Position numbers and translations under genes: made by a program. Shown here piece after piece: positions 31,977 to 61,495 of a stretch of 64,000 nt of DNA; positions within the stretch are counted from its first letter, which is position 1, and the number at the start of each line of letters is the position of its first letter. The DNA comes from Macrostomum lignano. Lineage: Eukaryota. The notes under the pieces were generated by a model. It saw only the letters and a program-made list of their open reading frames with translations, was not told where the DNA came from and searched no databases. The stretch covers positions 186,001 through 250,000 of the forward strand of contig NIVC01001680.1 in NCBI GenBank assembly GCA_002269645.1, read 5' to 3'.

Positions 31977-34131
31977 TCACGGCTGCGACAAGCCGGCGCC
32001 GATGACGCACTTGCCGTTGGCGGCGCAGGCGAATCCGCGGGGGCAGCAGTGGGAGCCGCCGGAACAACAAACGCCCTAAAGGTTGAGAAACGATTATAAT
32101 ACAATATCAGATACCAGTAGTTTTGAAACATTACTCTATATAAGCTACCAAGGAACTTACGTCAGAATGGCTGCAACACTTGGGACTGCCGGAGTCAGTA
32201 ATGCAGCAAGTAGACTTGCTGCCGCAGTTAAGGCCCGCAGCGCAAGCCACCAAGCGCCTCTGTGCACCGAACATAGAAAAGTGAGCTGAGCCAGCAGACT
32301 GTGATGGATAATCAGCTGAGCGAGCAGGCTCAGTAGTGGCCACTTGGTCAACCTCCGACACAGGAGCCATGCACTGGTACGTCTTTGGGTCGCACACAAG
32401 GCCGTACTTGCAGCACAGCACTGAGCCGGAGTAGAACGTGCAACAGCTGGACAACTTAGCACGGCTAGCAATGGAACCCGACTTGGAGCAGGTACCAGCA
32501 GACACATCGCACTTGTAGCCGTTGGGACAGCAGTGGACTCCGTCACTGCAGCATGTGGCCTTCTCCAATGGACAGCAGCCATACTGACCTGACTGAAGCT
32601 TGCAGCACGTCGATCCGTCTGGGCACTGGCTTTGACCGTCGGGGCACACTACGGCGTCGGTCTTGGTCTTGGTCTTGGTGAGAGCGTGGACAATGCCTCC
32701 TTTGGAGCAGGTACCAGCAGACACATCGCACTTGTAGCCGTTGGGGCAGCAGTGGACTCCGTCACTGCAGCATGTGGCCTTCTCCAATGGACAGCAGCCA
32801 TACTGACCTGACTGAAGCTTGCAGCACGTCGATCCGTCTGGGCACTGGCTCTGACCGTCGGGGCACACTACGGCGTCGGTCTTGGTCTTGGTCTTGGTGA
32901 GAGCGTGGACAATGCCTCCTTTGGAGCAGGTACCAGCAGACACATCGCACTTGTAGCCATTGGGACAACAGTGGACTCCGTCACTGCAGCATGTGGCCTT
33001 CTCCAATGGACAGCAGCCATACTGACCTGACTGAAGCTTGCAGCACGTCGATCCGTCTGGGCACTGGCTCTGACCGTCGGGGCACACTACGGCGTCGGTC
33101 TTGGTCTTGGTCTTGGTGAGAGCGTGGACAATGCCTCCTTTGGAGCAGGTACCAGCAGACACATCGCACTTGTAGCCATTGGGACAACAGTGGACTCCGT
33201 CCCTGCAGCATGTGGCCTTCTCCAATGGACAGCAGCCATACTGACCTGACTGAAGCTTGCAGCACGTCGATCCGTCTGGGCACTGGCTCTGACCGTCGGG
33301 GCACACTACGGCGTCGGTCTTGGTCTTGGTCTTGGTGAGAGCGTGGACAATGCCTCCTTTGGAGCAGGTACCAGCAGACACATCGCACTTGTAGCCATTG
33401 GGACAACAGTGGACTCCGTCACTGCAGCATGTGGCCTTCTCCAATGGACAGCAGCCATACTGACCTGACTGAAGCTTGCAGCACGTCGATCCGTCTGGGC
33501 ACTGGCTCTGACCGTCGGGGCACACTACGGCGTCGGTCTTGGTCTTGGTCTTGGTGAGAGCGTGGACAATGCCTCCTTTGGAGCAGGTACCAGCAGACAC
33601 ATCGCACTTGTAGCCATTGGGACAACAGTGGACTCCGTCCCTGCAGCATGTGGCCTTCTCCAATGGACAGCAGCCATACTGACCTGACTGAAGCTTGCAG
33701 CACGTCGATCCGTCTGGGCACTGACTCTGACTGTCGGGGCACACTACGGCGTTGACCTCTTTGTCTTGCTTAACTATGCAAGTTCCATCTTTAATATTGC
33801 ATTGGTGTCCGAATGGGCAGCAAGTTAATTTATCAACACAGCAGGTTCCATTTTTGTATGGACAACAGCCTTCTTGCCCGGTGCTTAGAGAACACTTGCT
33901 CTCTCCGTTAGAACATCTATTACTGTGTGAAGTCGATGACTTCAGTGTTGGTAGTTGCAATGGTTGAGATCTTTTGATGGCAGGGATCTTTTTAAAGATC
34001 GGGATCGTGTCAGGCAATTCGTCATCAAAAAGAGGTCGTCGAATTGGTTTGTAGAGAAGGTCATGGGAAAGAACTTCGCTAGTAGCAAGAACACTTGCAA
34101 AAAGAAGTGAAAGAAGAAGACGACCGGGCAT
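31977..34131 (-). CDS. GRN: Progranulin / granulin precursor
   Basis: Signal peptide MPGRLLLSLLFASVLA; six 73-aa units CPDGQSQCPDGSTCC..GCCP..TCC..HCCP..C..C. Exon 32161-34131 plus last exon 31977-32075 (GVCCSGGSHCCPRGFAC). Confidence 0.92.
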
Positions 34132-43593: not shown

Positions 43594-44487
<894 letters not shown>

Positions 44488-44495
44488 AACAAAAA

Positions 44496-44906
44496 ATGAC
44501 ACACGTTACACATGTGCAAAATATAAATGAGTATCAGGTAGGAGATCCAATTGAATACCGAGGTGAGGGACTTTTTGATTTGGTTGGAACAGCAGCAAAT
44601 TTTGTTAAAGACAATATGGGGCTTATAGGACAAGCTGGCTCTGCAGCAGGCTCTATAACAAATGCTGTAAAAGGAGGAATTGAAGCAGCTAGAGCGGCAG
44701 AAGAACTAAAGAAATTGAGAGATTTTAACGATACCCTCTCACAGATAAAAGCAATAAAAGATTTGAAATTAGCACAGGAAGCAACCCAAGCCGCACAACC
44801 AACAGAAACCCCCACGAAAAGCGCACCAATAAGTAATAAAGATATTCAGGATTTTAATAAAATGTTAAATACTATTAAAGGTGGAAAAGGATTAAAGAAA
44901 TTTTAA
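44496..44906 (+). CDS. Small putative virion core/membrane-active protein
   Basis: 136 aa with GEGLFDLV amphipathic segment and GGKG motif; function inferred only. Confidence 0.6.
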   Translation: MTHVTHVQNINEYQVGDPIEYRGEGLFDLVGTAANFVKDNMGLIGQAGSAAGSITNAVKGGIEAARAAEELKKLRDFNDTLSQIKAIKDLKLAQEATQAAQPTETPTKSAPISNKDIQDFNKMLNTIKGGKGLKKF

Positions 44907-44916
44907 CAATATAAAA

Positions 44917-45912
44917 ATGGGCTCAGTTAATGATGATGAAAACCGGTTATATTTTATAGGAGAAATTGTAGATACCTTAAATCTTGATGATAATAAGCAA
45001 ACCCACACAATGTTAAAAAGATTGGATCGATTAGGTAAAAAGTTTGACTACGACATCGATACATTTAAACTCGCAGCAAAATATGCACAAGAAGGAAGGC
45101 CAATATCCTTTAAGAATCGCGGCAGAAATTATAGGTTAACCGACTCCGATGTGAAATTTTTAATGGAGACTCACACTAAAAAGGACGGCGGATTACTACC
45201 CATTCTACCGCTTCTTTTAGGACTTGGCGCAGCTGGAGCAGTCGGTTTAGCCGGAAAAAGAATTCATGATAATGTAAAACAGCTAGGAGAGTTAAGAGCG
45301 AAACAGGGGGGAATCTTGCCCCTTGCAGCTTTGCTCCCAATAATTTTTGCAGGAATTGGAGCAGCTGGAGGAGTTGCTGGCGGAGCAGCTGGAATTGCAA
45401 AAGCAGTAAATGACAAAAAAGCTGCGGACGAAAAAGCTAAAAGAGAGGCCGAATTTCAAAGACAGCAAATAACGCAGGACGCACAATTTAAACAGAAACT
45501 TATTGATACCATTAATAGTAGTTCAGCAACAGCAGAGCAAAAAAGAAATGCAGAAGCTAGGTTATCAGCTGGAAAAGGTTTACTCTTGCAAGGATCAAAT
45601 CATGGCAATGGTTTACTTTTACAAGGAACAACCCAAGGAAGCGGAGTTGTCGCAGATAAATTACATGAATTTGGTCAAACTTTAGAAAAAACGGGTGAGA
45701 AAGCTAAAGGATTTTTTGACAATATTGGGGCTAATTTTAGGCCAGCAGTTCAGAAGATTTTTACTAAATTAGGAAAAGATTTTAACATAATTGAAAAGCA
45801 TGATGGAAGCGGATTATATCTCGAAATGAGACCAAAAGCAGGTTCAGGAATTTTCTTAAATTCAAACGTTATGGGCAATGGATTGCTGTTACCAAAAGCA
45901 GATCTCGAATAG
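44917..45912 (+). CDS. Core protein with adenovirus pX(mu)-like GG-[IL]LP hydrophobic motifs and GxG-L repeats
   Basis: KDGGLLPILPLLLGLG, KQGGILPLAALLPIIFAGIGA; GKGLLL, GNGLLL, GSGLYL, GSGIFL, GNGLLL. Confidence 0.65.
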   Translation: MGSVNDDENRLYFIGEIVDTLNLDDNKQTHTMLKRLDRLGKKFDYDIDTFKLAAKYAQEGRPISFKNRGRNYRLTDSDVKFLMETHTKKDGGLLPILPLLLGLGAAGAVGLAGKRIHDNVKQLGELRAKQGGILPLAALLPIIFAGIGAAGGVAGGAAGIAKAVNDKKAADEKAKREAEFQRQQITQDAQFKQKLIDTINSSSATAEQKRNAEARLSAGKGLLLQGSNHGNGLLLQGTTQGSGVVADKLHEFGQTLEKTGEKAKGFFDNIGANFRPAVQKIFTKLGKDFNIIEKHDGSGLYLEMRPKAGSGIFLNSNVMGNGLLLPKADLE

Positions 45913-45995
45913 GCTCCTGGGGGAGGGTCTGGACACCAAAAACGCAAAATTAAAAAATCAATAATTCAAACATTATATAAATTATATTCTATAAA

Positions 45996-48900
45996 ATGGA
46001 ACAAAGATTGACCCCAGATCAGATTCGACAACTTCTTGCAAATGAGCGCCAACAGTTCAATCGATTACAAAGACAGATTGAACAAATTGAACAGCGCCAA
46101 AGACAACAACGCCGCCAAAGAGCAAGAGAAAGACAGAGAGAAAGGCAGAGAGAAAGAGAAATACAAGACCAACAAATAAATGCATTAGCAAATAATATAA
46201 GGGCAGAATATGAAATGAAGCGATTAATAGAAAAGGCTGAATATGAAAAAAGAATAGCAGAATTAGAAAAAAACCAAAAGAAACCCACACGTCGGAAACC
46301 TCGGAATAAATCGGATGAAAAACCATTAGATGAGTTTATTAGGGTTTATCGATTTGAACCAATGCAGAATGTCCTAGATTTTATTGAAACCCAGCTTTCA
46401 AACGGATATGCTGTTGAAATTACTAATGCGAGGGTACAATATTTTTATAATAAAACCGGAGATGATCGTGAAGAGATTAATCAATACTTAGCAACATTTT
46501 ATAATATAAGCCAATTTCAAGCTTGGTTTAAGCATTTGGTAGAAAATTACGACATGAATTTAAGTGTGTTTTCTGGAAGACTTAAAATGACACCAAACGA
46601 AATTACACTTAAACACGAAAGGTCAAAGCAGGGTATGGGAACAAATGTCATGTGTGAAATTGTAGAGTATAAAGATGAGTACTGTTACATACCTAGTGAT
46701 GGAAATTGTTTCTACAAGTGTGTTCAGTTTATTTATGGTGATAAAGCCCCATCCAAAGACGAATATGGTGCTTGGTTGTTCGACTCAAGAACCCAAAGAG
46801 GTTTAATGACAAATTCAAGAATTGGAAGATTCAACGAATATTTTAATCTTAATATAGGGCTGTACAACACCAAAAATCGTGGCATTGAACCAAAGTTTCA
46901 AAGAGGGATTCACCACGATTGGTTATTAATAAATTATTTCCACACACCCGATTACCACATTGGGCATTATTGTCTTATATCAAATAAACAACGAGGAATC
47001 GCCCTCGAACGGATAAAAGACAATTATAAAGTTGTATATAAAAACCCAACGCTCGAAAATGTTAAGGAGCTAAAAATGTTCAACACACCCACAAACCCCA
47101 ATAAATCAAACGTATATATATTTGATTTTGAAACATATTTAAATTATAATCAACAAGCATGTCCGTATGCGGTTGGTCTTTTAAACTATAACGACTTTTC
47201 TAATAAGTGTAATGAAACCCCAGAGACAATAAAGAAACTAACTAAGATCTTGATATCAGATCGCGGTTGTGATTTTCAAACAGATGGAGATAAGGTTGAT
47301 CGTACCGAAGGTTCGCGGCCTAAGACCGATTGTGTTAGAAAAATGTTTAAATACCTTGGTACAGTTAGGTCAAAAAAGATTGTTTTGATCGCGCATAACT
47401 CATCCCGCTTTGATTCATACATACCACTATTTTGTAATATAAAACCAATTAAAATTCTCAAAACCCCAAGAGGAATATTATCAATAACTTTTGTAAACGA
47501 TTACGCGTCAAAAGAGGTTAGTGCATTTATAAACAAAGATAAGAAGAAGAATCATAAGGATTCGAAACAAACCATTACGATGCTTTGTTCATATCAACAC
47601 GCATCAATGAGTTTAAAAAAGTTTTGCTCATCAATGACAATTAGAGAGGATTTGCGAAAGACCTCAATGGTTCACGACATTACCGAACACGACTATTTAG
47701 AGCGCATGGACGAATGGTATGAATATTTACAATTTGATCTTATTTCTTTATGCGCCTGTATTCATAAGTATAATGAAATAGCATATGAAATTGGAGGAAT
47801 GACAATGTTCGATACTCTTACCTGTTCAAGTTTAACATTAAAATGTTGGTTTAAAGATTTTGTTAGAGTTGAAGACAAAATGAAACAATATCTAAAGACA
47901 GAAGAAAAAACTAATTACATTAAAAAAGTTGAAGAAATAATATCTCCGTTGAAAATAGAGGATTATTTTGACTTAAGCAAACTTGAAAAAGCAAAATACC
48001 AAACACTATTAAGAAAAGAATTTTCAGTTCACTCTCATACCAATCCTTATATACGAAGGTTTATGCGGGACGCAGTCAAAGGAGGCAGGGTATTTGCACT
48101 AATAAATAAATATGAAAGCGACTGTTTTCAAACAATTGTAGACGTTGTAAAAGCCCATTTAAAAACACCAACAAGCGACCCATGCGAGGTTATATCAACT
48201 TATCTCAAAAGCGATATGGAAGAAAAAAAGAAAATCGCAATTAAATTAAAAAACAATTGGGTACCGTATCAGATTGTTTAATGAATTTTGATGGAGTTTC
48301 GTTGTACCCATCTGCCATGTCTGATAAGGATAGTGAATATCCAAGAGCAGAAACAGCAAGAGTTTTTGATATAAGCGAGGAAAAAGATTTCTTGGCACAA
48401 TTTAATTCACAAACCTTTCGACCAAAAACAGCGGTTTTAAAGATTATGTATGAGAATCCTAACACCGTTTTTCTTCAACATCTCCCATCGAAAGATAAAG
48501 AGAAATTTTATAATCCGGAAACAAAAGCAAACGAAACAAAAACATTAAATAGGTTTAGAAACGGAAAAGTAATTGACACCTTATGTTCCGTAGATATACA
48601 AGAAATTGTAAGAATGGGTGGAAAAATATTAAAGATATATAGTGGAATTGTATATGAAAAAAATTACGATTTCTCTCCGTTTCAGAATTATATTACAAAT
48701 CTTTTTGAAATGAGAAAAGTATTTAAAAAAGAAAATAACGAGGCAGGTTCTGAATTGGTAAAAACACTATTAAATTCATTATATGGCAAAACAGTTCAAA
48801 GAGACATTACTTTCACAACACATCTCTGGAATTTGCAAACATTAAAAACCGAATACGATGACACAATCAAATCATATGAGAAAATATGTGACGATTTATA

Positions 48901-49615
48901 TTATGTTGAAAAAAATAAAGACACGCAAGAATATGTAGATGAGGAAGAGGAAAGTCCTATAACAAGCCTTTGTCCAGCACAATTAGGAATATTTATCTTA
49001 GCTCATTCAAGAAGGATCATGAATAATTTTATTACCTCTATAGAGGGCTCAAAGACTCCAGAAATTTATTACGGCGATACAGATTCGTTATATATACATA
49101 AAAAACATTGGGACACATTAAATAAAAACGGGCATGTTGGAAATAACTTAAGTCAAGGAAAAAATGATTATGGAGAGGGTGGAATTATATTCGGTTATTT
49201 TATCGCTCCTAAAATTAAATATTGTCTTTTATTGAAAGACGATTTTATTATGGAAGAGAAAAAAACATTTAAAGGATGTGCAAACGATAAGATTAATTTT
49301 GCATCGTTTAAAACTTTATATGATGGACAGTCAATAAAAGTAAATAATAATGCTCCGTGGAAACGATCATTTGAAGGTGGTATAACAATTCCTCAAAGCG
49401 GATCAACAATATCAAAAACATATACCTCTACGATAAACACATTTAAAAGAGAAAAACCGGATAAAAACGGAGTTATGAAACCATTCTTTAAAAACTATTT
49501 TGATGACAAACCACAGCATGAACATTCAATTGAATATTATAACAGTTTACTATTTGACGTTGACTATAATTGTTTTGAGTTCGATATTGATGAATTAGCA
49601 CTTGAAAAAAACTAA
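45996..49615 (+). CDS. polB: Protein-primed DNA polymerase B (one frameshift at ~48250)
   Basis: FDFET (ExoI), AHNSSRFD (ExoII), YLQFD (ExoIII), KGGR, DGVSLYPSAM, KTLLNSLYGK, YGDTDS. Confidence 0.95.
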
Positions 49616-49861
49616 AGCATGTAATTGTTTAAGCATAATATCCATTTCGATTTCATATAATATTGAAGGCCAATTTTCCTCGCAGTCGTCAGGGTAACTT
49701 AAACAATCCTTTATTTTTTTCCTAAGTTTTTTTATTTTTCTAACCAATCTATCTATTTCAATTTCAATTACTATTTCAGCATAATTAATTGCAGATTTAA
49801 TAAAACGTTTTCTTTTATCCATTTTCATATCGGATGGGAAACATATCGTCCCCATACTCAT
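49595..49861 (-). CDS. Hypothetical protein
   Basis: 88-aa ORF packed against the polB end; no motif recognised. Confidence 0.45.
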   Translation of the reverse strand: MSMGTICFPSDMKMDKRKRFIKSAINYAEIVIEIEIDRLVRKIKKLRKKIKDCLSYPDDCEENWPSILYEIEMDIMLKQLHALVFFKC

Positions 49862-49953
49862 GATATTTCTGAGATATAATTATATTTATTTTTTTATTAA
49901 TATCATTAAGTTCACGCTCTTTAGTGATAAGGATTTTTATTGTCTCCATTTTC

Positions 49954-50301
49954 TTATAAAAAATTTAAACTTATTCGGGGGTCATCCTCCCAAACAGCCG
50001 CCAATTTTACAGTCCTATCACTCTTTTTATTATTTGTTTGTTTTAGTTTAAATTGCAATCCACCCTCGTTGCAGTATTTCATAACAAACGCTTTAGGTTT
50101 ATTAATAACTAAAACAGGAAAATTTTTAACATCATCTCCGCTTAGACATAAAATTTTTTGCCCATCTAATTGTAAAAATATTGATTGAAGCCCAATAAAT
50201 TTAACCTGTCTCAAACATATAATATTATATTCTTTATTCTCCAACATATTGGGTGTGAGATAATTAATCACATTAGAATCGGTTTTGAACCAGCTCTCCA
50301 T
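49954..50301 (-). CDS. Hypothetical protein (probable start MESWFK)
   Basis: Normal composition within the packed viral gene array. Confidence 0.5.
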   Translation of the reverse strand: MESWFKTDSNVINYLTPNMLENKEYNIICLRQVKFIGLQSIFLQLDGQKILCLSGDDVKNFPVLVINKPKAFVMKYCNEGGLQFKLKQTNNKKSDRTVKLAAVWEDDPRISLNFL

Positions 50302-50328
50302 TTTTAATCTAAAAAAATAACAAAAAAA

Positions 50329-50841
50329 ATGAAAGACATTTATGTTTGTAATAAATGTAATGTGACTATGCACAGAGGGCAAACAGCAAACGGAGATATA
50401 TATCATATGTGTTATTCATGTTCTAAAATATATCAATTTGAAAAAACAAAAAAGATTGAAAACTCATATTACTATTTTAAAAACACAATTTTAAGAAATC
50501 TTACAAGAGACATTTCTGATCCAATTTTAATTCCCGGAAATAATGTTTATTTATATAATAACTTTTTCCATTTAAATAAAGGAAAGGGATTAAGTTCGAA
50601 AGACTCCGAAAGGATTTTAATTTTAGTTGGATATTATTTCAATTTTCTTATTCGAGAGAATACAAAGTTTATAAGGATAGGTAACATACCTAACGAAATG
50701 TTACTGAAAAAGTCATTGGAATTTTTATGTATTGATAAAAAATTTAAACCTAGGATCAGAAGAGAGTTACCACTTTGGGAAGAATATATAACATATGCAT
50801 TAAATAAATTAAACAACATTAAGTTCTACCGCACTTCCTGA
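50329..50841 (+). CDS. Zn-ribbon-containing hypothetical protein
   Basis: CNKC..CYSC near the N-terminus. Confidence 0.55.
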   Translation: MKDIYVCNKCNVTMHRGQTANGDIYHMCYSCSKIYQFEKTKKIENSYYYFKNTILRNLTRDISDPILIPGNNVYLYNNFFHLNKGKGLSSKDSERILILVGYYFNFLIRENTKFIRIGNIPNEMLLKKSLEFLCIDKKFKPRIRRELPLWEEYITYALNKLNNIKFYRTS

Positions 50842-51465
50842 CCGTGGGCTTTGTGCCCCAGTAGCAATAGTTTCAGGTTCGTAAATACCTAATGTTTCTA
50901 TAGGTGGAGCTTTGGGTTTGTCCAAACGTAATTCTTTTAATTCCATATCGGTAAAAGTTTCAACATCTAAAATTCTATTTCTATCTTTTAAATATTTTTC
51001 ATATAATTCAACCGCGGTTGATAATTCATGAATCGTTATCTCTCCGTCATCCAATATTTTTTGCACATATAAATATAATTGATTTTTATATTGTTTTGCA
51101 ACATCTCTTAAAGATTTATATTTTTCCTTTCTTTTTTTAAGATATAATTTAATTGCTAAAAGTATTGATAAGTTCCTGATCAATTCAAAACCTGATATTG
51201 AGCCAATTGAAATACCTAAAAATAATTGAGATAAATTAAGAGTTGGAATAGATTGTAAAATACCTAAAACGATTACACATAACATTGATAAGCTTCCAAA
51301 TCCAATATTGAAAAAGTCCATATTTCTTATATGGTTTGAAACTCTTCTTACTTTTTTAGCATATAAATCATAATCATAGTTAATACGATCAACATTACTT
51401 AACATCTGACCTTTACGTTGGTTGAACCGGTCGCGTTCCCATTTATCTGCTTCAGATACCGACAT
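50809..51465 (-). CDS. Two-TM-helix protein of the type common in Polintons
   Basis: Two hydrophobic segments followed by KEKYKSLRDVA..QKILDDGEITIHEL (cf. SKALxDxxISxxEF pattern). Confidence 0.55.
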   Translation of the reverse strand: MSVSEADKWERDRFNQRKGQMLSNVDRINYDYDLYAKKVRRVSNHIRNMDFFNIGFGSLSMLCVIVLGILQSIPTLNLSQLFLGISIGSISGFELIRNLSILLAIKLYLKKRKEKYKSLRDVAKQYKNQLYLYVQKILDDGEITIHELSTAVELYEKYLKDRNRILDVETFTDMELKELRLDKPKAPPIETLGIYEPETIATGAQSPRSGSAVELNVV

Positions 51466-51794
51466 TCTCGTCTATTTTTAATAGCACCAAAATGAATTCC
51501 CCGCGCTCTTTGGGGATTTGTCCCGAGCTCAATAGGTATTGTATTGGAGTGATTCTTTCTTTTTTCTCCCATTTAAATCCTATTTTCCAAAACTCTTGAA
51601 GTATAATATGATTTTTTAATAACTTAATTAATTCTTGAAGCTTCTTATTATCCTGAACATTTACAGTACTAAATAAAAATTTGGTATGAGATTTGAATGT
51701 TTTTATATTTGATTCTTGTTTAGGAATAGGAATAATAACATTATTTTGCCGCATCGATGGAGTTCTACTAAAAGCCATTTTATATAGAAATATT

Positions 51795-53838
51795 TTATAT
51801 TTGAGTAGGAGGTTTTTCCAAATAAGCAGTAGAGGGAAAAACATAACCAAACGACGTACTACCACATACAACTGCACCACGAATAAAATGTGCAGCATCC
51901 GCTCCACCAGTTCGAGCACCAAAACCCATAAGGGTTCCAGATTTATCTAAAGTTCCCCAAGTTCCACTATCATATGTGAAAACGTTCTGTCCAATGAGGG
52001 TAAAAGAATCACCAGCAACATTGTATGACTGTAATCGGTACCAAACCCTTTGATTTAAAATATTAACTTCAAATAAATGCCAATTGCCGTTATCAATATT
52101 AGCATAGGCTACAGTTTGATCTGCGCCAGTATTAACATCCGCGCGGCTTGATCCGTCTGATTTTTTATTACTCCAAACAACTCCAAACCTATCAGTCCAC
52201 TCACTAGCAAACACTATCAATCCGGCGTCGGTTGATAATCCAGTTCCAAATTCCGATGTTGGACGTTGGTGACAGTATGCATAAAACCAAACCGCATCTG
52301 CACCATCTCCTGTAGCATTAGCAACTCGGAAAAAGAAAGACGCAGATATATTTTGAAAATGTGTGAAATTGAATTGTAAAGCACCACTTACTCCAGAGTT
52401 TCACGAGTAATTCTAGCGCCGTTTTGATAATCGATATAAGAAGCATCGCTAATTAAAGAACCGACTGGATATATATCTCCGGCGGTTGTTGGATTTTGAT
52501 ATCCAGACCAATTGCAAATTACTGGTTCGAACAAGGCCGCATCAATAGCAGGTATTCCATCCAATTTATTTTTATCGCTTCCAGACATTCTACCATTTGA
52601 TGTTGGAGTAGCTAGCTGATCTACGTACGCTCGCGGAACTGCAGAAAGTATTTGAGTTGGCCAATTAAGATCTTGAATTTCAACACGGTGTTCAAATAAT
52701 TGTATTTGACGAACCTCGATAGGTTGTGTACCGGTACCACCAGTTGGGAAGAATACGCTATAATATTTCCAAAAATTAGTCGTTAAATTAGATAGAGCAA
52801 ATGATGTTGCTTGAACTGGTGATCCCGACGTAGTTAATGTTGTCCATGAATCGGTAGCAACATTTTTTGCGCGAACCGACCACCCCGAGGGTATCTCAAT
52901 TGTTTCACTGCCTGTAATTCTTAATTCAAATATTCTTCTATTATAACCTAAAAATTCAAATTGAATTTCCATATTGGTTGTGGTTCCGGTATTTGGTGAC
53001 CATTGTGTCGCAAGGCTTCCATCTCCAACTCGAAAAGCTGTGTTGCCATTTTCAGATGCTGTAAGAACAACATCAGGATTTGAAGTATTTGATGTAAGCG
53101 GCGTGGTAAAAATATCGGCGTCGGTTGCATTAGCTCGCTCGTTTACTTGGCCTAGAGTTATCGAGTCTGCGTTCTCTGTTCCAAATAATAAATTTGTTAA
53201 TTTAAAATTATTCATATTAATATTTCCACTACGAGTGGCAACTTGATTATCGACATAGTTCTTATCAACCACTGAATCACTAGTTGTAATTGAAACATTT
53301 ATAATTCGGTTGTTGCTCATATCTAGGTTTCCGGTTGCGGTGGTTTGAACATAACGTGAATCAGAATCAGTTCGAGAATAAGAATCAGTTACATCTCTTT
53401 TTAAATTTAATCCATTATCAACTTCGGTTTTGGTATAAGAATCGGCTACGTTCCGTTTCAAATTTAATGAATTATCAACTTCGGTTTTGGTATAAGAATC
53501 GGCTGTATTGCGTTTTAAATTTAATGAATTATCAACTTCGGTTTTGGTATAGGAATCGGCTGTATTGCGTTTTAAATTTAATGAATTATCAACTTCGGTT
53601 TTGGTATAGGAATCGGCTACGTTCCGTTTCAGATTTAGTGAATCATCTATTTGAGTTTTGTATAGGAATCTGCAACATTTCTTTTTAAATTTAGTTTAGT
53701 ATCAACTTCACTTTTTTTATAACCTTCATCTTCATTAATATATCGATTATCTCCAAATGTAACACTTATTCCACCAGATGTGCCACCACCACCACTACTT
53801 GTTGTTCCGTTCCATGAGGGTGTTCCAGAAAATAACAT
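51795..53838 (-). CDS. Fibre/tail-fibre-like adhesin (two frameshifts, ~680 aa restored)
   Basis: 19-aa repeats DSYTKTEVDNSLNLKRNVA; GNLDMSNNRIINV..KNYVD stalk motifs; discoidin-like block; ATPTSNGRMSGSDKNKLDGI; C-terminal ConA/LamG-like block (DNGNWHLFEV). Confidence 0.7.
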
Positions 53839-53848
53839 TTTTTACTGT

Positions 53849-54310
53849 CTATTTTATAGAGTCTAAAATCGTGCCATCGGCACGCATGCTTTGCATGATA
53901 CTAAATCTTCGGGTTTCCTTCGAGTTATTAATTTTATATAAAAAATACAACGCCGCTTGCCCGCAATAACTTTTATCAAATGTTTGAAATTGTTCGTGAT
54001 GATCTCCACATAAACGATTTTTAGTATGATTAAATTTGTCTTTTATTTCCTGTAACGGAGGAAGCGCGTATGAATCAAAAAAATAAACAAGTTTTGGTTT
54101 TGAATAAACTGCTGACCAATGAACACCGTTTTCTTTTGTTGTTTCAATATTAACAATGAAAGATCCATATTGTGGTAAGTCTTTGATCTCATCTCGCATA
54201 ACACATCTGAATGGTTTTATTTTTAACTGCCTCGCCCAATTTGTTAATTCGATATTGCTTGTTGTGTCCGTTCCATATCTTTGTTTAAAATCATCCCACG
54301 TCATGGTCAT
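53849..54310 (-). CDS. Adenain-like (C5) cysteine maturation protease
   Basis: NGVHWSAV (His), FFDSY (Asp), QTFDKSYCG (Gln/Cys). Confidence 0.92.
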   Translation of the reverse strand: MTMTWDDFKQRYGTDTTSNIELTNWARQLKIKPFRCVMRDEIKDLPQYGSFIVNIETTKENGVHWSAVYSKPKLVYFFDSYALPPLQEIKDKFNHTKNRLCGDHHEQFQTFDKSYCGQAALYFLYKINNSKETRRFSIMQSMRADGTILDSIK

Positions 54311-54531
54311 TTTATGTTCCTGAAAAACTCTTGGTTTTAGTTAGTTTCGTAGGTGTGGGTTTTAACAATTCCTTTCTTATTTTATCAGCTTGTAACTGCC
54401 TTAATTTTGCTAGTTCTAGTTCGTAATTATCTTCAGCTTTTTTAACTTTTTCTGATTGTTTTTTTATTAAATTATTATTATTATCGTGCTTTGCACGCGA
54501 ACATGTTGTTCGATTACCCATTTTTACAGTA

Positions 54532-55317
54532 CTAAACCTGTTTTATACGTAAAATTATTGTTATTGACTGCCCACCAAAACTTATTAATCTATCGCTTTC
54601 ATCTACAATCCTAATATAAATTGATTGAACATTATATTGATTTAATGGGTAATATATTGGGGTTTGGGGTGCAACAATCATTTTCTCTCCAATTGGAACA
54701 GCAAGAAATGGGATTGAATAAATAATTCCACGTTGAACCAAAACTCCGTTATCGTCTGTTATATAACCACCGTTTGAAATGTCGGTTGTTATATTAATTG
54801 TATTTACTCCACCCTCTATATTTCCAACTGTATCACCGGTGCTTGATGTGGTAACTATTCGGGAATTAAATCCAAGTATGGTTCTGAGTGAATTTGCAAT
54901 TGTGAAATCAACCTGATATCCGGATCCTAGTGATAGTGTGAATCTGCCAGACGGTAAATCAACACCTATAACAATTGCTCCTGCTACCCAATCACCATTA
55001 GTTGTTAATTCTCCTTCTATATAAGCATTCAAATCAGTATAGCTATACGCTCCTGGGTTAACGCTAAATGTTGTCCAATTGGCTCCGGAATCTTTAGAAT
55101 ATCTAAATTGATTATTTGTTGCATTAATTAATTGAGGCATGTTGAAAACCGAAAATAGTATTAAACCTATTTGATAACTTAGGCTTTGATCAAGTTGTAA
55201 TGGATCGCGCAATTGAATCCGTTGCTCGCTGGTTGTCATTATAAACTGTAATGTTGTACTAAATTTTGAATTAGTTCGATCTACCAATTGTTTTATAGTA
55301 TTTAAATTTGTAGTCAT
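54532..55317 (-). CDS. Minor capsid protein (penton, single jelly roll)
   Basis: INATNNQFRY, PGAYSYTDLN, LRTILGF, PIYYPL..IRIVDESDRLISFGG..IILRI are typical of Polinton pentons. Confidence 0.85.
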   Translation of the reverse strand: MTTNLNTIKQLVDRTNSKFSTTLQFIMTTSEQRIQLRDPLQLDQSLSYQIGLILFSVFNMPQLINATNNQFRYSKDSGANWTTFSVNPGAYSYTDLNAYIEGELTTNGDWVAGAIVIGVDLPSGRFTLSLGSGYQVDFTIANSLRTILGFNSRIVTTSSTGDTVGNIEGGVNTINITTDISNGGYITDDNGVLVQRGIIYSIPFLAVPIGEKMIVAPQTPIYYPLNQYNVQSIYIRIVDESDRLISFGGQSITIILRIKQV

Positions 55318-55414
55318 TTTTATAGTGGGAAATTAATGGACGAAGTCCGCGTTCCGAAGGAACGATCGAACGAAGTTCGCGACCCTATGGGCGATCGTAC
55401 CGAAGGTACGCGTG

Positions 55415-56213
55415 CTATGCACGATCCTCTTCTTCCTCATTATCTTCTTTTATCAAATTTGTTAAAATTCTATGTTTCCTTTCTAACCTCGGATTGATAT
55501 AAATATGTTTGTATTGGCTATCATCCCAAATTTTTTTACACATACTTTTAAATGGTTTTGCATCCAATCCGGGATTAAATCTAGCGTGTATATTTTGTAA
55601 ATCATAGTTATCTAAATCAAACATTACACAACAACTTGCATTCTTTTTTATAATCGATTCTAATTCTCTAAAGGATTGAGTAAGATAAAAAGCTCCAATT
55701 CCATCTCCTCTACCACTAACAAAAATTTCCTTTTGCAATTCTTGATCACCGTCATTAATACAATCATCAAAAATAATTAGTGTTTTATCATGTTTTGGAA
55801 TTTGATCATAGGCTAATCGGGTTGATACTCTAACAGTTGGGGCTCGATCGGACGAAGTCCGCGACCCTTCGGGGCGATCGGTGATGTTTTCTGGCTGTTG
55901 TGCCATTGTTTTACATAAATCCTCAATGTCTGCTAGATTAAATCGCGGTTCGTCATCATCCTCATATTGCTCATATGCTCTTAACATTCTAAACAAGACA
56001 TCTTTTTTTAATTTGTTTTTTAATCCATGTTTAAGAAATTCATAATATTTTATTCTAGGTTTTAGTATAAATTATTAAATTATTATAGTCTAGCATTCCA
56101 TCGGTTGTTAACAGGTCATAAACAAAGTGTGTTTTTCCTTTACCTGATCCTCCGATTACTAAACAAAGAAAAGGATCATTTGGAAATATTTTATTGTGTT
56201 TTGCCTTTACCAT
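55415..56213 (-). CDS. A32/FtsK-like packaging ATPase (frameshift at ~56065)
   Basis: MVKAKHNKIFPNDPFLCLVIGGSGKGKT (Walker A), LIIFDDC (Walker B), GRGDGIGAFYLTQS. Confidence 0.9.
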
Positions 56214-57731
56214 TTTTAAAGAAATAATTTAAATAGGCGCGACGGTCGGAGACCTGCGACACTAAAGTGGCGTCCCGAACAATCGTGCCATCAGCTTTAG
56301 CAATTGACATATATTCCTCTAGAAACAATACGTGGGCGTCAAGTGCCTGATTACCGGTTTTATTAATCTCTAACATATAATTAAGTCCAATATTGGCTAC
56401 GTTTTCTTTCTGTGCCGTTAGATCATAAACAACCACTGGATGAATGTTTAGAAACTCTGTGGGTGTGTACTGAGGGACGGCATACGCTTCATTTTTAGGC
56501 ATAATCTTGATAATATTTTATAAAATCATTAACATTATTATTTGCTATATTTAAATTTAGGGGGTCTTTAACCGGATAATATTGATCATCAACCTGCAGG
56601 CGGATATTCTGAACATTAAACTCGTTAATAGCTGCAGCCGCATTGTCTGTTGCGGTGGCTGCTTGTTCTGCTATGGCACCGGATTGAAGCCAATATAAAT
56701 CCCCATTTGCTCTTTTACTCCTTCTATTTGTTATCTTAAACCAAACAAAAATATATCTCACCCGACGTTTTGATGTCAGTATTTGCCACTGGAATGAATC
56801 CTGGTTATTATTAATGGTTCGCATAAAATGTCGACGATTCAAATAAAATATTTCCTGATCATGCGTTAACTGATTATCGATGTGTTTTAAAAGTGGGGCT
56901 GTTACCTCAATAGTTGGTACGACTAATTGAATTGAATCTATACGAACTGCTATATCGGTTGAAATTGAGGTTCCATAAAGTATCCTAGGCTGATATCCAC
57001 CAGATATTTGCAACTGTATCCCAAATTTTAATCCTTTCCATACCCGATTTGGTGAGAAAAACCCAAATAGTGGAAAGATTGAAAAGTCCTGCTCATATGC
57101 TGTTGCTGTGGTTAAAACCGCGACTGGGAATTTATTCTGACGATCTATAAAACCAGTATTAATATCTTTTGTATTAGTCATAGTGGTTACAACTGGAACT
57201 ATGTTTGTATTAAGGTAAACAATTAGCGCTGCAGTATCTGCACCGGCTGCGTTTTGTACATTAGGGAAAACTACTGCTTGACCGTTACCTTTATCCGGCA
57301 TCCACCCAACATTATCACCAACTTGTTTTGATAAATAAGTATAATTTAAATGTTTCAAAACTCCATTAATCTCTGCGGGGTTTGATGATGTCTCAACCTC
57401 AGCACCATTAACAGTTAGTTGAGCTTGGGAAAAACATTTATAAAACCAATCATTTTCTATTATTATTCCGGATCGATCTGCGATATCTCCGGCTGCAAGA
57501 GCAGTTCCATCATTTCTAGTATACAACCATCTAACGCGGAAAAACATTTTTCATATCCAATATAGTGTTGGTTGCGCCGATGTCAAAAGTTACCGTTCCA
57601 GTAGTAAAGTTATTTGAATTATCACTTGTTGGTAGGGTATAATTTAAATCTCTTGCTCTGACCTCATTAATATACTGTCGGTGCTTTTTGAAATGAAATT
57701 TATCACTCCACATAGTTTTTGTTTCAGCCAT
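56191..57731 (-). CDS. Double-jelly-roll major capsid protein (two frameshifts)
   Basis: Three consecutive ORFs (57531-57731, 56495-57547, 56191-56502) total ~510 aa; FSQAQLTVNGAEVE, RVRYIFVWF, LQVDDQYYP, HPVVVYDLTAQKE. Confidence 0.85.
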
Positions 57732-57765
57732 TTTTTTAAGTTAAAAAAGTTTTTTATGTTAAAAA

Positions 57766-58434
57766 ATGAGTCAATTTATGGACGTTGATGGAGAGTTAGC
57801 GATTTATAAAGAGAAGCAAAGATATTCTGATTTTGTTAGAAATTTACAAAAAAGAAAGTTAGGAATACAATTAGCTGGCGAAAGATTTGCTGCTCCTTTT
57901 GTTAATCCTATTACTGGGAAAATTAGTGAACTAGAAAAAACAGATAAAGATCTTCTGGAAAAAATTGCTAAAAATACGAGCCAAAAGAGGATGAAATTTT
58001 GGATGAGCCGCCTGCTTATGAGACTGATCAAGCAATATTTAGAGTTGCAGAAATTAGACGTGAAGAGATTAGGGGTGGAGTTGAACAATATCCGAGATGC
58101 ACCAACTAGTATTGCTGTGACAGATTTAGGTGGTGGTAATTATCGAATTGGTAACGTAGTTAAAGATCGAAATGAACTATATAGAGAATTGGGCGGAGCA
58201 TTTAATATTATTACGAACCCTAGGGTAAAATTTAACCCCGATTTATATACTAGGGATGAATTAATAAGTGCTAGAATTTTTTATGATGAGTTAGGAGGAG
58301 CTGTTAAAAATACCAGCTTGTATAAATGGATTGTTAATTCTATAAATAACAAACCAGCTGTTGGTGATGGATTTAAAACACCGCGAAAACTTGTTTTAGC
58401 TGCTGCGAAAGCTGCTGGACATACTGGAGTTTAA
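57766..58434 (+). CDS. Hypothetical Polinton protein (possibly PZ-like)
   Basis: 222 aa with DLYTRDEL and VGDGF motifs; assignment weak. Confidence 0.45.
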   Translation: MSQFMDVDGELAIYKEKQRYSDFVRNLQKRKLGIQLAGERFAAPFVNPITGKISELEKTDKDLLEKIAKNTSQKRMKFWMSRLLMRLIKQYLELQKLDVKRLGVELNNIRDAPTSIAVTDLGGGNYRIGNVVKDRNELYRELGGAFNIITNPRVKFNPDLYTRDELISARIFYDELGGAVKNTSLYKWIVNSINNKPAVGDGFKTPRKLVLAAAKAAGHTGV

Positions 58435-58461
58435 TTAATTGTTAAATTTATTTTTTATAAA

Positions 58462-59029
58462 ATGGATGAAACAAAAATTTGTACTACGTGTAAAATTGAG
58501 AAACCGATGACTAAAGAATTTTTTTGTTGGAGAAATGACACAAAAAAATTTAAAAATCTTTGTCGATCTTGTGAGAAAGTTAAATGCACTATGTGGAGAA
58601 TAAACAATAAAGATAAATGTAATAAATATGCAAAAAATAAATATCGCACTGATGAAAATTTCAAAAATATTAGTCTAATTAGAGCTAAAATAACTTGGGC
58701 ATTGAGAACTTTTCATGACAAACATTATATCTCATATCTTGGTTGCACAAAAGAATTCTTTTTGATTGGTTAAATTTCACAAGAAATTATTATGTTCCAA
58801 AAAATTATACTGGAAAGTTAGATATTGATCATTTCATTCCCGCTTCTTCATTTATTACAAAGACGATGATCAGATTAAAAAGTCTGAAAATTGGAGAAAT
58901 AAAAGATACTTAACTAGCGTAGATAATAACTATAAAAAAGTTAAACAACCAACAATTGAAGAATTTGCGAAACAATTGGTGCTATCATGTATTTTTAAGG
59001 CTATTAAAAATGAACCAAATAGTGTTTGA
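58462..59029 (+). CDS. Free-standing HNH-type endonuclease (frameshifted)
   Basis: N-terminal CTTC..CRSC, YLGCTKEFF(L)DW, DIDHFIPASSF, ENWRN..LTSVDNNYKK, as in NCLDV/phage HNH proteins. Confidence 0.75.
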
Positions 59030-59720
59030 AGGAGGATTTTTAGACTTACAAAAAGGATTAACAAGCTTACCACCAATCTTTACTACTGGGAGGTATACGG
59101 GTGAGCTACACCTACCATCAATGAACTTCACAGGTTAACCCGTGGCCTGAGTGAGGAAGCAATGTCCTTGCTAGTCACTATTTGTGGCGACATCTCCAAA
59201 TTGCGTGAAACCGTCATACAGCTTCAAGTACCACTTCAAGTGAGAAATCTTTTGAAGGAACAGAGGTAACTCCTCTTCCCAAAGAATAAAAAAGCTTGAA
59301 GACACGGTGGCAATGCGCAGCCAAGCTCCTAAGTATTTTAAATATAAGGAGAAGGTTCAGAGAGCAGACGGAGATGGGCGGTAATTATCGCCGCTTAAGG
59401 TGTGCTCCAGCCTCATTCGAAAGATTGAGGTAAACAGCCGGGGACTAGACTGGATTTAAGATTAAATCCTGACAATACTCCAAAATCTGATTCAATTCAA
59501 TAAATGGGATTGATTGGTTAGCATACTATCACGACTTAGCATATAGAGATGCTGACAAGAACCCGCCGAGGAAGCATTAAGATTAAAACATGAAGCCGAT
59601 CAAAAAATGATTCAAGGATTAGATAACTTGCAGGGATTATCGGTAGGTCAAAATTAACTAGGTGGATGGTTAAAAAGATCTTGCAGTCTAAAGTTAAATT
59701 TGGTTTGGGAATTAATTATA
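59010..59720 (+). CDS. Parvovirus-VP1u-like phospholipase A2 split by a group I intron
   Basis: Exon 1 59010-59135 ends ELHLPSMNFTG; exon 2 from 59438 reads PGTRLDLRL..(P)INGIDWLAYYHDLAY..KHEADQKM..KFGLG once single-base frameshifts are corrected. Confidence 0.85.
59136..59437 (+). ncRNA. Group I intron ribozyme, subgroup IC1 (302 nt, no ORF)
   Basis: 5' exon ends in U and pairs with IGS GCCTG (59145-49); intron ends in G. P3 CATCTCC 59191-97/GGAGATG 59370-76; P AAATTGCGTGAAA; Q AATGCGCAGCCAAG 59312-25; P7 GAGCA 59362-66/TGCTC 59403-07; P5abc, P6, P8 and P9 all pair. Confidence 0.92.
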
Positions 59721-59745
59721 ATCAACATGGAAATAATTGTGTTGA

Positions 59746-60083
59746 GTGTTTACTATTAAGTGGCGTGGGTTAAGTTCTGATGAGGCAAAGATTCTTCATA
59801 AAGAATATCGAAAACCTAAATTTTATAGAAAAATCATGAACTTCAAAAAGAATGAAATTTGGTATGCTGATTTAATGTCGATGCCGAAAGATCTGGGATA
59901 TAAATATATCTTAACCATATTAGATGGTTTTACTCGATACGCGTGGGCTGTTCCTTTAAATCCAAAAAAGGAGAGGATGTTGCTGCTGCTTTTAGAAGTC
60001 TTGGAGAAAAAGCGAAAGTTTGTGTGTTGACGAAGGAAAAGAATTTTACAATCCTACATGTATAAATTGTATCATTTTGAAAA
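59746..60083 (+). CDS. Retroviral-like (rve) integrase, truncated by the assembly gap
   Basis: ILHKEYRK..EIWYADLMSM..GYKYILTILDGFTRYAWAVPL..VDEGKEFYN. Confidence 0.9.
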
Positions 60084-60835
60084 NNNNNNNNNNNNNNNNN
60101 NNNNNNNNNNNNNNNNNNNNNNNNNNNNNNNNNNNNNNNNNNNNNNNNNNNNNNNNNNNNNNNNNNNNNNNNNNNNNNNNNNNNNNNNNNNNNNNNNNNN
60201 NNNNNNNNNNNNNNNNNNNNNNNNNNNNNNNNNNNNNNNNNNNNNNNNNNNNNNNNNNNNNNNNNNNNNNNNNNNNNNNNNNNNNNNNNNNNNNNNNNNN
60301 NNNNNNNNNNNNNNNNNNNNNNNNNNNNNNNNNNNNNNNNNNNNNNNNNNNNNNNNNNNNNNNNNNNNNNNNNNNNNNNNNNNNNNNNNNNNNNNNNNNN
60401 NNNNNNNNNNNNNNNNNNNNNNNNNNNNNNNNNNNNNNNNNNNNNNNNNNNNNNNNNNNNNNNNNNNNNNNNNNNNNNNNNNNNNNNNNNNNNNNNNNNN
60501 NNNNNNNNNNNNNNNNNNNNNNNNNNNNNNNNNNNNNNNNNNNNNNNNNNNNNNNNNNNNNNNNNNNNNNNNNNNNNNNNNNNNNNNNNNNNNNNNNNNN
60601 NNNNNNNNNNNNNNNNNNNNNNNNNNNNNNNNNNNNNNNNNNNNNNNNNNNNNNNNNNNNNNNNNNNNNNNNNNNNNNNNNNNNNNNNNNNNNNNNNNNN
60701 NNNNNNNNNNNNNNNNNNNNNNNNNNNNNNNNNNNNNNNNNNNNNNNNNNNNNNNNNNNNNNNNNNNNNNNNNNNNNNNNNNNNNNNNNNNNNNNNNNNN
60801 NNNNNNNNNNNNNNNNNNNNNNNNNNNNNNNNNNN
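60084..60835. other. Assembly gap (752 N)
   Basis: Run of N. Confidence 1.
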
Positions 60836-61172
60836 TAATAATTCATTTTTTAAATATTTTTTTCACATAAAAATTTCACTTTCATTCTCTGAATCACTGG
60901 TTTCATATGAACTATTTGTTGATTCGGAATCTGTTGATCTAACCTCCCAATCATCCGAATTTAAATAATCTCCAAGTTGAAATATTAACTCACCCTCTTG
61001 TTCTAATCATACATCTCATCTAGCTCTAATGGATAAAGTTTTAGGTCGTGCTTGTCGTCATATTTTAAATAAACTTCATCAATTATTCCATTCAAAATAT
61101 GTTGTTTTATTATCTCTGCATTTTTAGCAACAGTCTCAAAAGTATCACTAACAGAAAAGGTGTAAACTCGGT

Positions 61173-61495
61173 TCATTTTTTATAACAGAAAAAGACCCTT
61201 CGCGCCTGCGGCGCGTGCGACGGGTTCTAGAAAGTTTGTGTGTGTTGGAGAGAGTTGGAAGCGTTGACGATACAAAATACCCAGCAAACCATTCTCACCA
61301 TTGCAAACAATTTAACCCTTTATCAGTGTGAAATGGCCTGTTTGACCGAAATGAAGCGAGGATGAGCGAAGCGAGTTGAGCGAAGTGAAGACGAGCGAAA
61401 ATGAAGGGAAACAGGCCATTTCACACTGATAAAGGGTTAAATTGTTTGCAATGGTGAGAATGGTTTGCTGGGTATTTTGTATGGTATATACTACT
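61173..61495 (-). repeat. Right TIR containing a perfect 74-bp hairpin stem
   Basis: 61270-61343 is the exact reverse complement of 61409-61482; 65-nt purine-rich loop. Confidence 0.95.

Follow-up and report, generated by a model that had tools for sequence, protein, structure and literature searches.

Why does the packaging ATPase gene of a Polinton in the genome of Macrostomum lignano close inside a row of tiny double hairpins, and do such hairpins serve the viral genes around them or only travel among them? We addressed this question in a window of 64,000 nucleotides (assembly GCA_002269645.1, contig NIVC01001680.1, positions 186,001 to 250,000 of the forward strand), which is the whole stretch of DNA analysed here; coordinates are those of the window, and a strand is given where a feature was assigned one. 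The host Polinton/Maverick spans 44136..61495, with AGTAGT...ACTACT terminal repeats, genes for a protein-primed polymerase (pPolB), an A32-like ATPase and capsid proteins, an rve integrase and an assembly gap at 60084-60836. Its classification draws on the terminal inverted repeats, a PF03175 match, a PF04665 match above the cut-off and a PF00665 match just under it, and we take the capsid, penton and protease genes to be such from gene order, size and the usual anatomy of Polintons, not from family matches. The flanks of the element, which contains the gap, hold no matching target duplication. Frame breaks in the window copy split the polymerase (45996-49615), ATPase (55415-56210), capsid (56191-57680) and HNH (58462-59030) genes, which are longer in other copies.

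The focal array, at 55336..55425 in the window sequence, comprises three double-hairpin units of 30 bp, each laid out as AT + [CG-X-nnn-X'-CG] + [CG-Y-nnn-Y'-CG]. One arm of each unit has 13 nt (five pairs) and the other 15 nt (six pairs), both are capped by a 3-nt loop, and the two adjacent stem-loops are GC-rich against AT-rich surroundings. Arm order along the array is small-large, small-large, large-small, with CG-AT-CG at the joints. The inserted part is a 28-bp double hairpin placed at an AT, which leaves AT on both sides and a net gain of 30 bp. A preliminary description of this locus had recognised a double mini-hairpin of about 30 bp, in agreement with arms of 13 + 15 nt plus AT; the letters that it quoted are present, but the register is AT followed by two CG-bounded arms, and of the triloops that it called fixed only the length (always 3 nt) is constant while the sequence varies. 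Units 1 and 2 of the window array are each one base short relative to contigs of runs X1, X17 and X19, and full 30-bp versions of both also occur in most sister copies; because run contigs and most sister copies are full length, we treat all array units as 30 bp.

Folding with DNA parameters recovered the predicted arms and gave -22.7 kcal/mol for the array (z -3.2). Three of the four stretches tested folded better than shuffles (z -3.0 to -4.9), including single units at 54483 and 53868 (z -4.0 to -4.9), while a unit at 55847 folded no better than shuffles (z -0.6 and -0.7). Loops of the C-GNA-G type are exceptionally stable in DNA, and many unit loops are of this type.

The ATPase stop falls within unit 3 of the array, where the window allele reads TAG in the loop, and about 20 bases further downstream the penton gene begins, much as had been described at the outset. 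This overlap results from insertion at an AT directly before the original stop. Four further units are dispersed singly through the Polinton, again as first described. The unit at 47299..47330, in-frame in the DNA polymerase gene, is older and partly decayed, and is empty in 1/16 copies. The unit at 53868..53899 lies in-frame near the end of a protease-like gene, with empty, single and double alleles, and has one arm bounded by CA/TG instead of CG/CG with pairing kept. Downstream of the penton gene, the unit at 54483..54514 is empty in 6/31 copies; the unit at 55847..55878, in-frame in the packaging ATPase gene, is empty in 8/48.

A second, unrelated hairpin insert at 56238..56275 occupies the end of the major capsid gene and is empty in 1/47 copies, the others being single or double. 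Its family has 33- or 36-bp units with swappable arms of their own and, among the loci examined, was seen only at this gene end; a loose genome pattern for it returned 621 matches against 476 for the control, too loose to inform.

Whether 30-bp units could arise by chance, or occur equally in host DNA, was a question that the preliminary description had proposed to settle by pattern search. A strict finder returned five units in the 15,946 bases of Polinton sequence that the window holds, none in 46,637 host bases and none in 300 dinucleotide shuffles. Across the whole genome the strict pattern had 288 matches against 0 for a reversed-pattern control, and a looser pattern 608 against 167. All of the 47 distinct contexts sampled, which are the first-listed part of the 288 strict matches, lay in or beside Polinton DNA (45 within 150 bp, 2 within 180 bp), in a search whose pattern was built from Polinton copies and which host elements of other shape would escape. 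About 32 unrelated insertion sites were distinguished, most of them flanked by AT...AT.

Three groups of elements contain units: the window lineage, a second lineage with a capsid about 25% identical, and a third family of shortened elements. The second-lineage unit occupies the same position within an intron common to both lineages and may have been carried along by it; the third-family site is independent, and the corresponding site is empty in the second lineage. Pattern scans of IMG/VR gave one partial single-arm match, 0 and 0, with no intact unit, and among 16 matches from a JGI scan at least one stem was always broken (the best had 1+1 mismatches). Searches for related loci that started from the capsid protein were negative in both contig collections, and capsid relatives at 41-51% identity are known only as proteins on short contigs. 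We infer that the unit is probably a selfish, non-autonomous micro-element, confined to Polinton DNA in the contexts sampled and devoid of coding capacity. Such a range is an argument for replication and recombination of these Polintons as free genomes.

Comparison of sister copies showed that the unit is optional wherever a site was examined. The 47 copies of the focal site divided into 9 that are cleanly empty, 4 with short remnants and 34 with 1-4 units; these are allele counts rather than event counts, as copies within one assembly share duplications, alleles and recombination, and the copy searches scored the best 24-40 of 180-337 candidates each, at ~89-99% identity. In the empty copies the ATPase closes at its own stop, and C4890, C1944 and C617 keep a full-length ATPase frame. 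Empty focal joints also occur in contigs of runs X13 and X17. Elsewhere, the intron site is empty in 20/29 copies and the polymerase-end site is filled in 1/16.

Of 70 flank-distinct contexts, 53 have AT at either end of the unit and 17 do not, and many empty sites read a single AT. There are several sites, however, where GT, AA or TT stands in most empty alleles and AT is in the minority, so that the target duplication may not be a strict one; such alleles fit with filling of AT alleles or with later mutation. In a hand tally over 32 sites judged non-homologous, seven of which lack AT on one flank or both, a G stood before the target AT at 24 of 64 strand positions against a background of 17% (p ~1e-4), a bias consistent with short homology to the GATC junction. 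The inter-unit junction CG-AT-CG is itself a target, which would explain the arrays. Inspection of the empty sites by eye revealed no shared palindromic nuclease site that insertion destroys. Mobility of the double-hairpin unit is well supported by these alleles, and we regard the unit as very probably mobile.

The inserted length also preserves reading frames. Among 91 AT-bounded forms, 81 have the 13+15 geometry, 24 of them within gene matches, and none of the nine forms with a length not divisible by three lies inside a gene match. In-frame units occur in PolB1, PolB2, integrase, ATPase, protease and several unnamed genes, and all three frames are represented. Insertion of the unit is accordingly a route by which 10-residue loops can be added to viral enzymes.

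The 37 distinct intact units combine 17 small arms with 24 large ones. The loop-closing pair is C-G in 40 of 41 arms, in a sample where the outer CG pairs were imposed by the search and loci were partly fetched with a pattern requiring this closing pair. The two inner stem pairs vary jointly, with G-C, T-A, A-T and C-G all seen, which bears out the initial observation that stems change yet stay paired; an A-G mismatch recurs in one common arm. Identical stems carry loops in either orientation (GAA/TTC, AAA/TTT, TAT/ATA). Most units are confined to one site and a few identical 28-mers are shared by unrelated sites, while at a single site arms replace one another. An allele series at the protease site illustrates how: a second unit is added beside the first, and the pair then collapses through the central CGCG. 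Template switching in quasi-palindromes is an established process, and these self-complementary arms are comparable; switching within an arm would yield paired changes and flipped loops without selection for function. In the units listed, the A of an asymmetric ACCC...GGGG arm always lies toward the central CGCG.

The same Polintons carry genes for putative DNA-cutting enzymes. A variable nuclease slot at 58462..59030 (+) holds an HNH/endonuclease VII-like gene, its frame split in the window copy, and an Eco47II-like gene in other copies; we consider this slot a candidate source of a helper. The HNH-like gene has a weak PHROG endonuclease VII match (E=0.001) and Atlas HNH neighbours at 0.87-0.89; a homologue search and a PDB sequence search found no match to the protein, and an AlphaFold model of the single protein had a pLDDT of 44. 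The Eco47II-like gene has a Pfam match above the cut-off in L143 and an Atlas value of 0.95, and was located at L143:3400-4075, L154:2555-2990 and L102:1013-1516. It lies inside an intron in the second lineage and stands free just upstream in some window-lineage copies, where it alternates with HNH genes. Hairpin units are found in copies with either nuclease cassette, which counts against a helper from this slot.

The intron in question is a group I intron, at 59136..59437 (+) in the window and also in L154, L108 and L143, which interrupts a PLA2-like domain (PF08398, E=0.012, below the cut-off) located upstream of the integrase frame and holds a 30-bp unit in 9/29 copies, the window copy being empty. 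It matches RF00028 (Rfam) with 66.6 bits in the window and 88-91 bits in the second lineage against a cut-off of 50, and all 28 of the genome candidates scored exceed that cut-off. In many copies the base before the predicted 3' exon is A rather than G. The accessible text of one study places group I introns only in Polinton-like viruses of three protist groups (PMC12220804), and that of another describes nuclear group I introns as known only in rRNA genes (PMC3679873).

The exon ends at the intron, GGT and CC, form GGNCC across a Gly-Pro codon pair. This motif is all but missing: it occurs 0 times against 18.8 expected in the window Polinton and 0 against 10.6 in the second lineage. Copies totalling 480 kb contain it twice, where roughly 423 occurrences would be expected, and Gly-Pro occurs in none of 15 proteins. 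Assuming that the GGNCC specificity of Eco47II extends to the Eco47II-like nuclease here, that enzyme probably cuts GGNCC, and the intron would remove the one site that could not be mutated away. Two further motifs fall below expectation in the window Polinton (44138-60083), CCNGG with 6 against 18.8 and CTNAG with 15 against 35.4; these are perhaps targets of other nuclease variants. Taken as homing-type traits, the exchangeable nuclease slot, the group I intron and the avoidance of GGNCC suggest that free Polintons meet, cut and repair one another, a setting where a hairpin unit could be copied in.

How the unit moves can be modelled from these features. We lean, by little more than an even chance, toward a copy-in that accompanies Polinton replication or repair and that a junction nuclease, as candidate helper, might assist. 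Movement would occur by copying, not by cut-and-paste, during replication of Polintons as free multi-copy DNA. Polymerases of the pPolB class replicate DNA by strand displacement. In a displaced single strand both arms would fold, placing the two ATs next to each other; a pause or a nuclease cut would leave a 3' end in (G)AT, which would pair with the AT at the donor junction; and the strand-displacing pPolB would extend this end by 30 bases before returning to the original template at AT. Such pairing, extension and return would account for the duplication, the G bias and the arrays. Arrays collapsing through the central CGCG would yield new arm pairs, and template switching inside each arm would alter both sides of a stem together and turn loops round. 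Since the 13+15 shape is constant and stem sequence is free, a structure-specific protein may take part; the candidates are HNH/endonuclease VII-like nucleases encoded by these Polintons, namely the gene at 58462 and the similar domain of PolB2. Restriction to Polinton DNA suggests that insertion is coupled to the replication of these elements, and would not be expected of a diffusible transposase acting on chromosomes. In its full form this reading describes a 28-base transposon defined by its shape and not by its sequence, recognised and copied by the Polinton's own polymerase and a junction nuclease, confined to replicating viral genomes, advancing in frame-preserving steps of 30 bases and diversified through interchangeable arms, within animal Polintons in nuclease conflict that also involves a group I intron and a GGNCC-cutting enzyme; we offer the whole of it tentatively, as somewhat short of an even bet.

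Excision and re-insertion would explain several of the same features. Here a nuclease or integrase would cut the folded unit from single-stranded DNA as a nicked or closed dumbbell and join it to AT, by a staggered 2-base cut or by peel-and-paste. Constant geometry with free sequence agrees with such a process, as do the 2-bp duplication and the placement of the folded unit's ends side by side. A dumbbell could reopen on either strand, however, and the ACCC...GGGG arm nonetheless keeps one orientation in the units listed. The scanned open reading frames include no HUH or transposase family, and the Polinton's own ends are AG...CT rather than CG. We consider this route unlikely.

An RNA route, in which the transcript of a double hairpin would be used to patch breaks after reverse transcription or by reverse splicing, appears improbable. 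It has been proposed, in the accessible parts of the reports, for the closest analogues, the Allomyces elements and yeast GC42 (PMC2800124, PMC4478555), and the units do sit in transcribed genes and a group I intron. The scanned Polinton open reading frames include no reverse transcriptase, though, and a host enzyme should seed host DNA too, where none was seen in the sampled contexts; units also occur in both orientations and all three frames.

Equally doubtful is a functional viral cis-signal, such as a terminator, RNA-processing site, origin or packaging signal. The preliminary description had suggested a fixed single-stranded DNA, protein-binding or RNA-processing signal for the neighbouring genes, and many sites are indeed at gene ends or intergenic, many loops are of the stable C-GNA-G type, and the unit is virus-restricted. 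That suggestion is not supported: units are optional at every examined site, missing from copies with intact frames (three of the nine empty focal alleles keep a full-length ATPase frame) and present in the middle of enzyme genes. The bias toward gene ends, moreover, is what survival of neutral insertions predicts. A bacterial promoter and terminator scan found nothing, its model being bacterial and not apt for this host. Recognition of the folded shape by a protein is plausible as a means of spreading, not as a service to genes. Assembly artefact or ordinary tandem slippage, to which variable array lengths and the two single-base differences between window and reads might point, is hardly credible and largely refuted by the allele series, the genome counts and the other runs, as units within an array differ in sequence, single units stand at unrelated sites with clean empty alleles, and filled and empty forms recur in other runs.

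We compared the unit with known systems. A full-text literature search found no such element reported in a Polinton, though subscription journals, repeat databases and supplements might hold one, and the accessible parts of PMC12220804, PMC11296320, PMC8502044, PMC10748475, PMC7813641 and bioRxiv 10.64898/2026.07.28.741278 mention none in a Polinton or other virus. Closest in architecture are the double-hairpin elements (DHEs) of chytrid (Allomyces) and fission-yeast mitochondria, described in excerpts of PMC10085805, PMC4618339 and PMC7218506 as GC-rich, noncoding and optional, with two adjacent stem-loops, and thought to be mobile. As far as those excerpts go, the Polinton unit is likewise a short GC-rich stem-loop pair, noncoding and optional between relatives, a likeness of architecture. 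DHEs are mitochondrial, whereas the unit belongs to Polintons of an animal genome (47/47 sampled contexts in or beside Polinton DNA); the unit also departs from DHEs in its invariant 13+15 geometry and in its many in-frame insertions within genes for enzymes. Allomyces elements also lack flanking duplications in the portion of PMC2800124 available, in contrast to the apparent AT duplication here (53/70 contexts).

Yeast mitochondrial GC clusters such as GC42 are palindromic, with a putative 2-base AG target duplication, tandem arrays, merger and shuffling (PMC4478555, in part). On that partial account they share with the Polinton unit a 2-base duplication, arrays, and merger with shuffling; they differ in residing in a yeast organelle and using AG, whereas the Polinton unit resides in a virus-like element, uses AT and has constant-length capped mini-arms drawn from an interchangeable library. 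Sponge and placozoan mitochondria contain small, proliferating repetitive hairpins, some with 3-nt loops, also in coding genes (excerpts of PMC2800124 and PMC7813641). These are mitochondrial and mostly single, and the descriptions in those excerpts include no fixed double-arm unit or target rule. The movement of mitochondrial double hairpins and GC clusters has been called unresolved in passages of PMC4478555 and PMC2800124. A frame-preserving, virus-confined mobile double hairpin with swappable arms resembles DHEs and GC clusters but lies outside them by location. For the question of how hairpins move it offers a small system: a 17-kb element of ~15 genes for which dozens of alleles have been sequenced, empty sites are clean and the target rule is clear, with a short list of possible helper proteins that can be tested on oligonucleotides.

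Familiar classes of non-autonomous DNA were considered as well. MITEs are defined by terminal inverted repeats of ~10 bp or more and a cognate transposase family; the unit shares only CG ends, the open reading frame scans returned no transposase family, and we do not assign it to this class. Hairpins mobilised by HUH enzymes (REP/RAYT, IS200/IS605) need an HUH/Y1 enzyme in cis or in trans. No HUH/Y1 family was found among the Polinton open reading frames scanned, several of which have no family match. Transposable elements do enter virophages and Polinton-like viruses, with MULE, LINE and Ngaro insertions described in the accessible part of bioRxiv 10.64898/2026.07.28.741278; MITEs and these hyperparasitic elements resemble the Polinton unit as non-autonomous or hyperparasitic DNA inside a viral genome. 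The unit differs from them in being far smaller, with CG ends only and apparently no insertion into host DNA.

Several further observations concern relatives of the host element and the remainder of the window. In L109:41-3445, L147 and L153, the same capsid module is accompanied by an unrelated PolB2-type polymerase with an endonuclease VII-like domain, which replaces PolB1; PolB1 and PolB2 both bear in-frame hairpin units. The HNH domain of a nematode pPolB2 superimposes on PacI according to the available portion of PMC10748475. Short inverted-repeat elements at L110:~930-1214 and L145:~1985-2090 start with AGTAG and end with CTACT, as Polinton termini do, and are possibly miniature non-autonomous derivatives. 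The L145 family (G000 C255, C1205, C1950, C954 and others) is shortened, keeping the terminal repeat, the PLA2 5' exon, the intron start, the nuclease gene and a unit of its own, at a site that the second lineage has empty. Outside the Polinton, at 32131-34131 (-), a host gene contains 219-bp tandem repeats encoding cysteine-rich units, which are presumably granulin-like.
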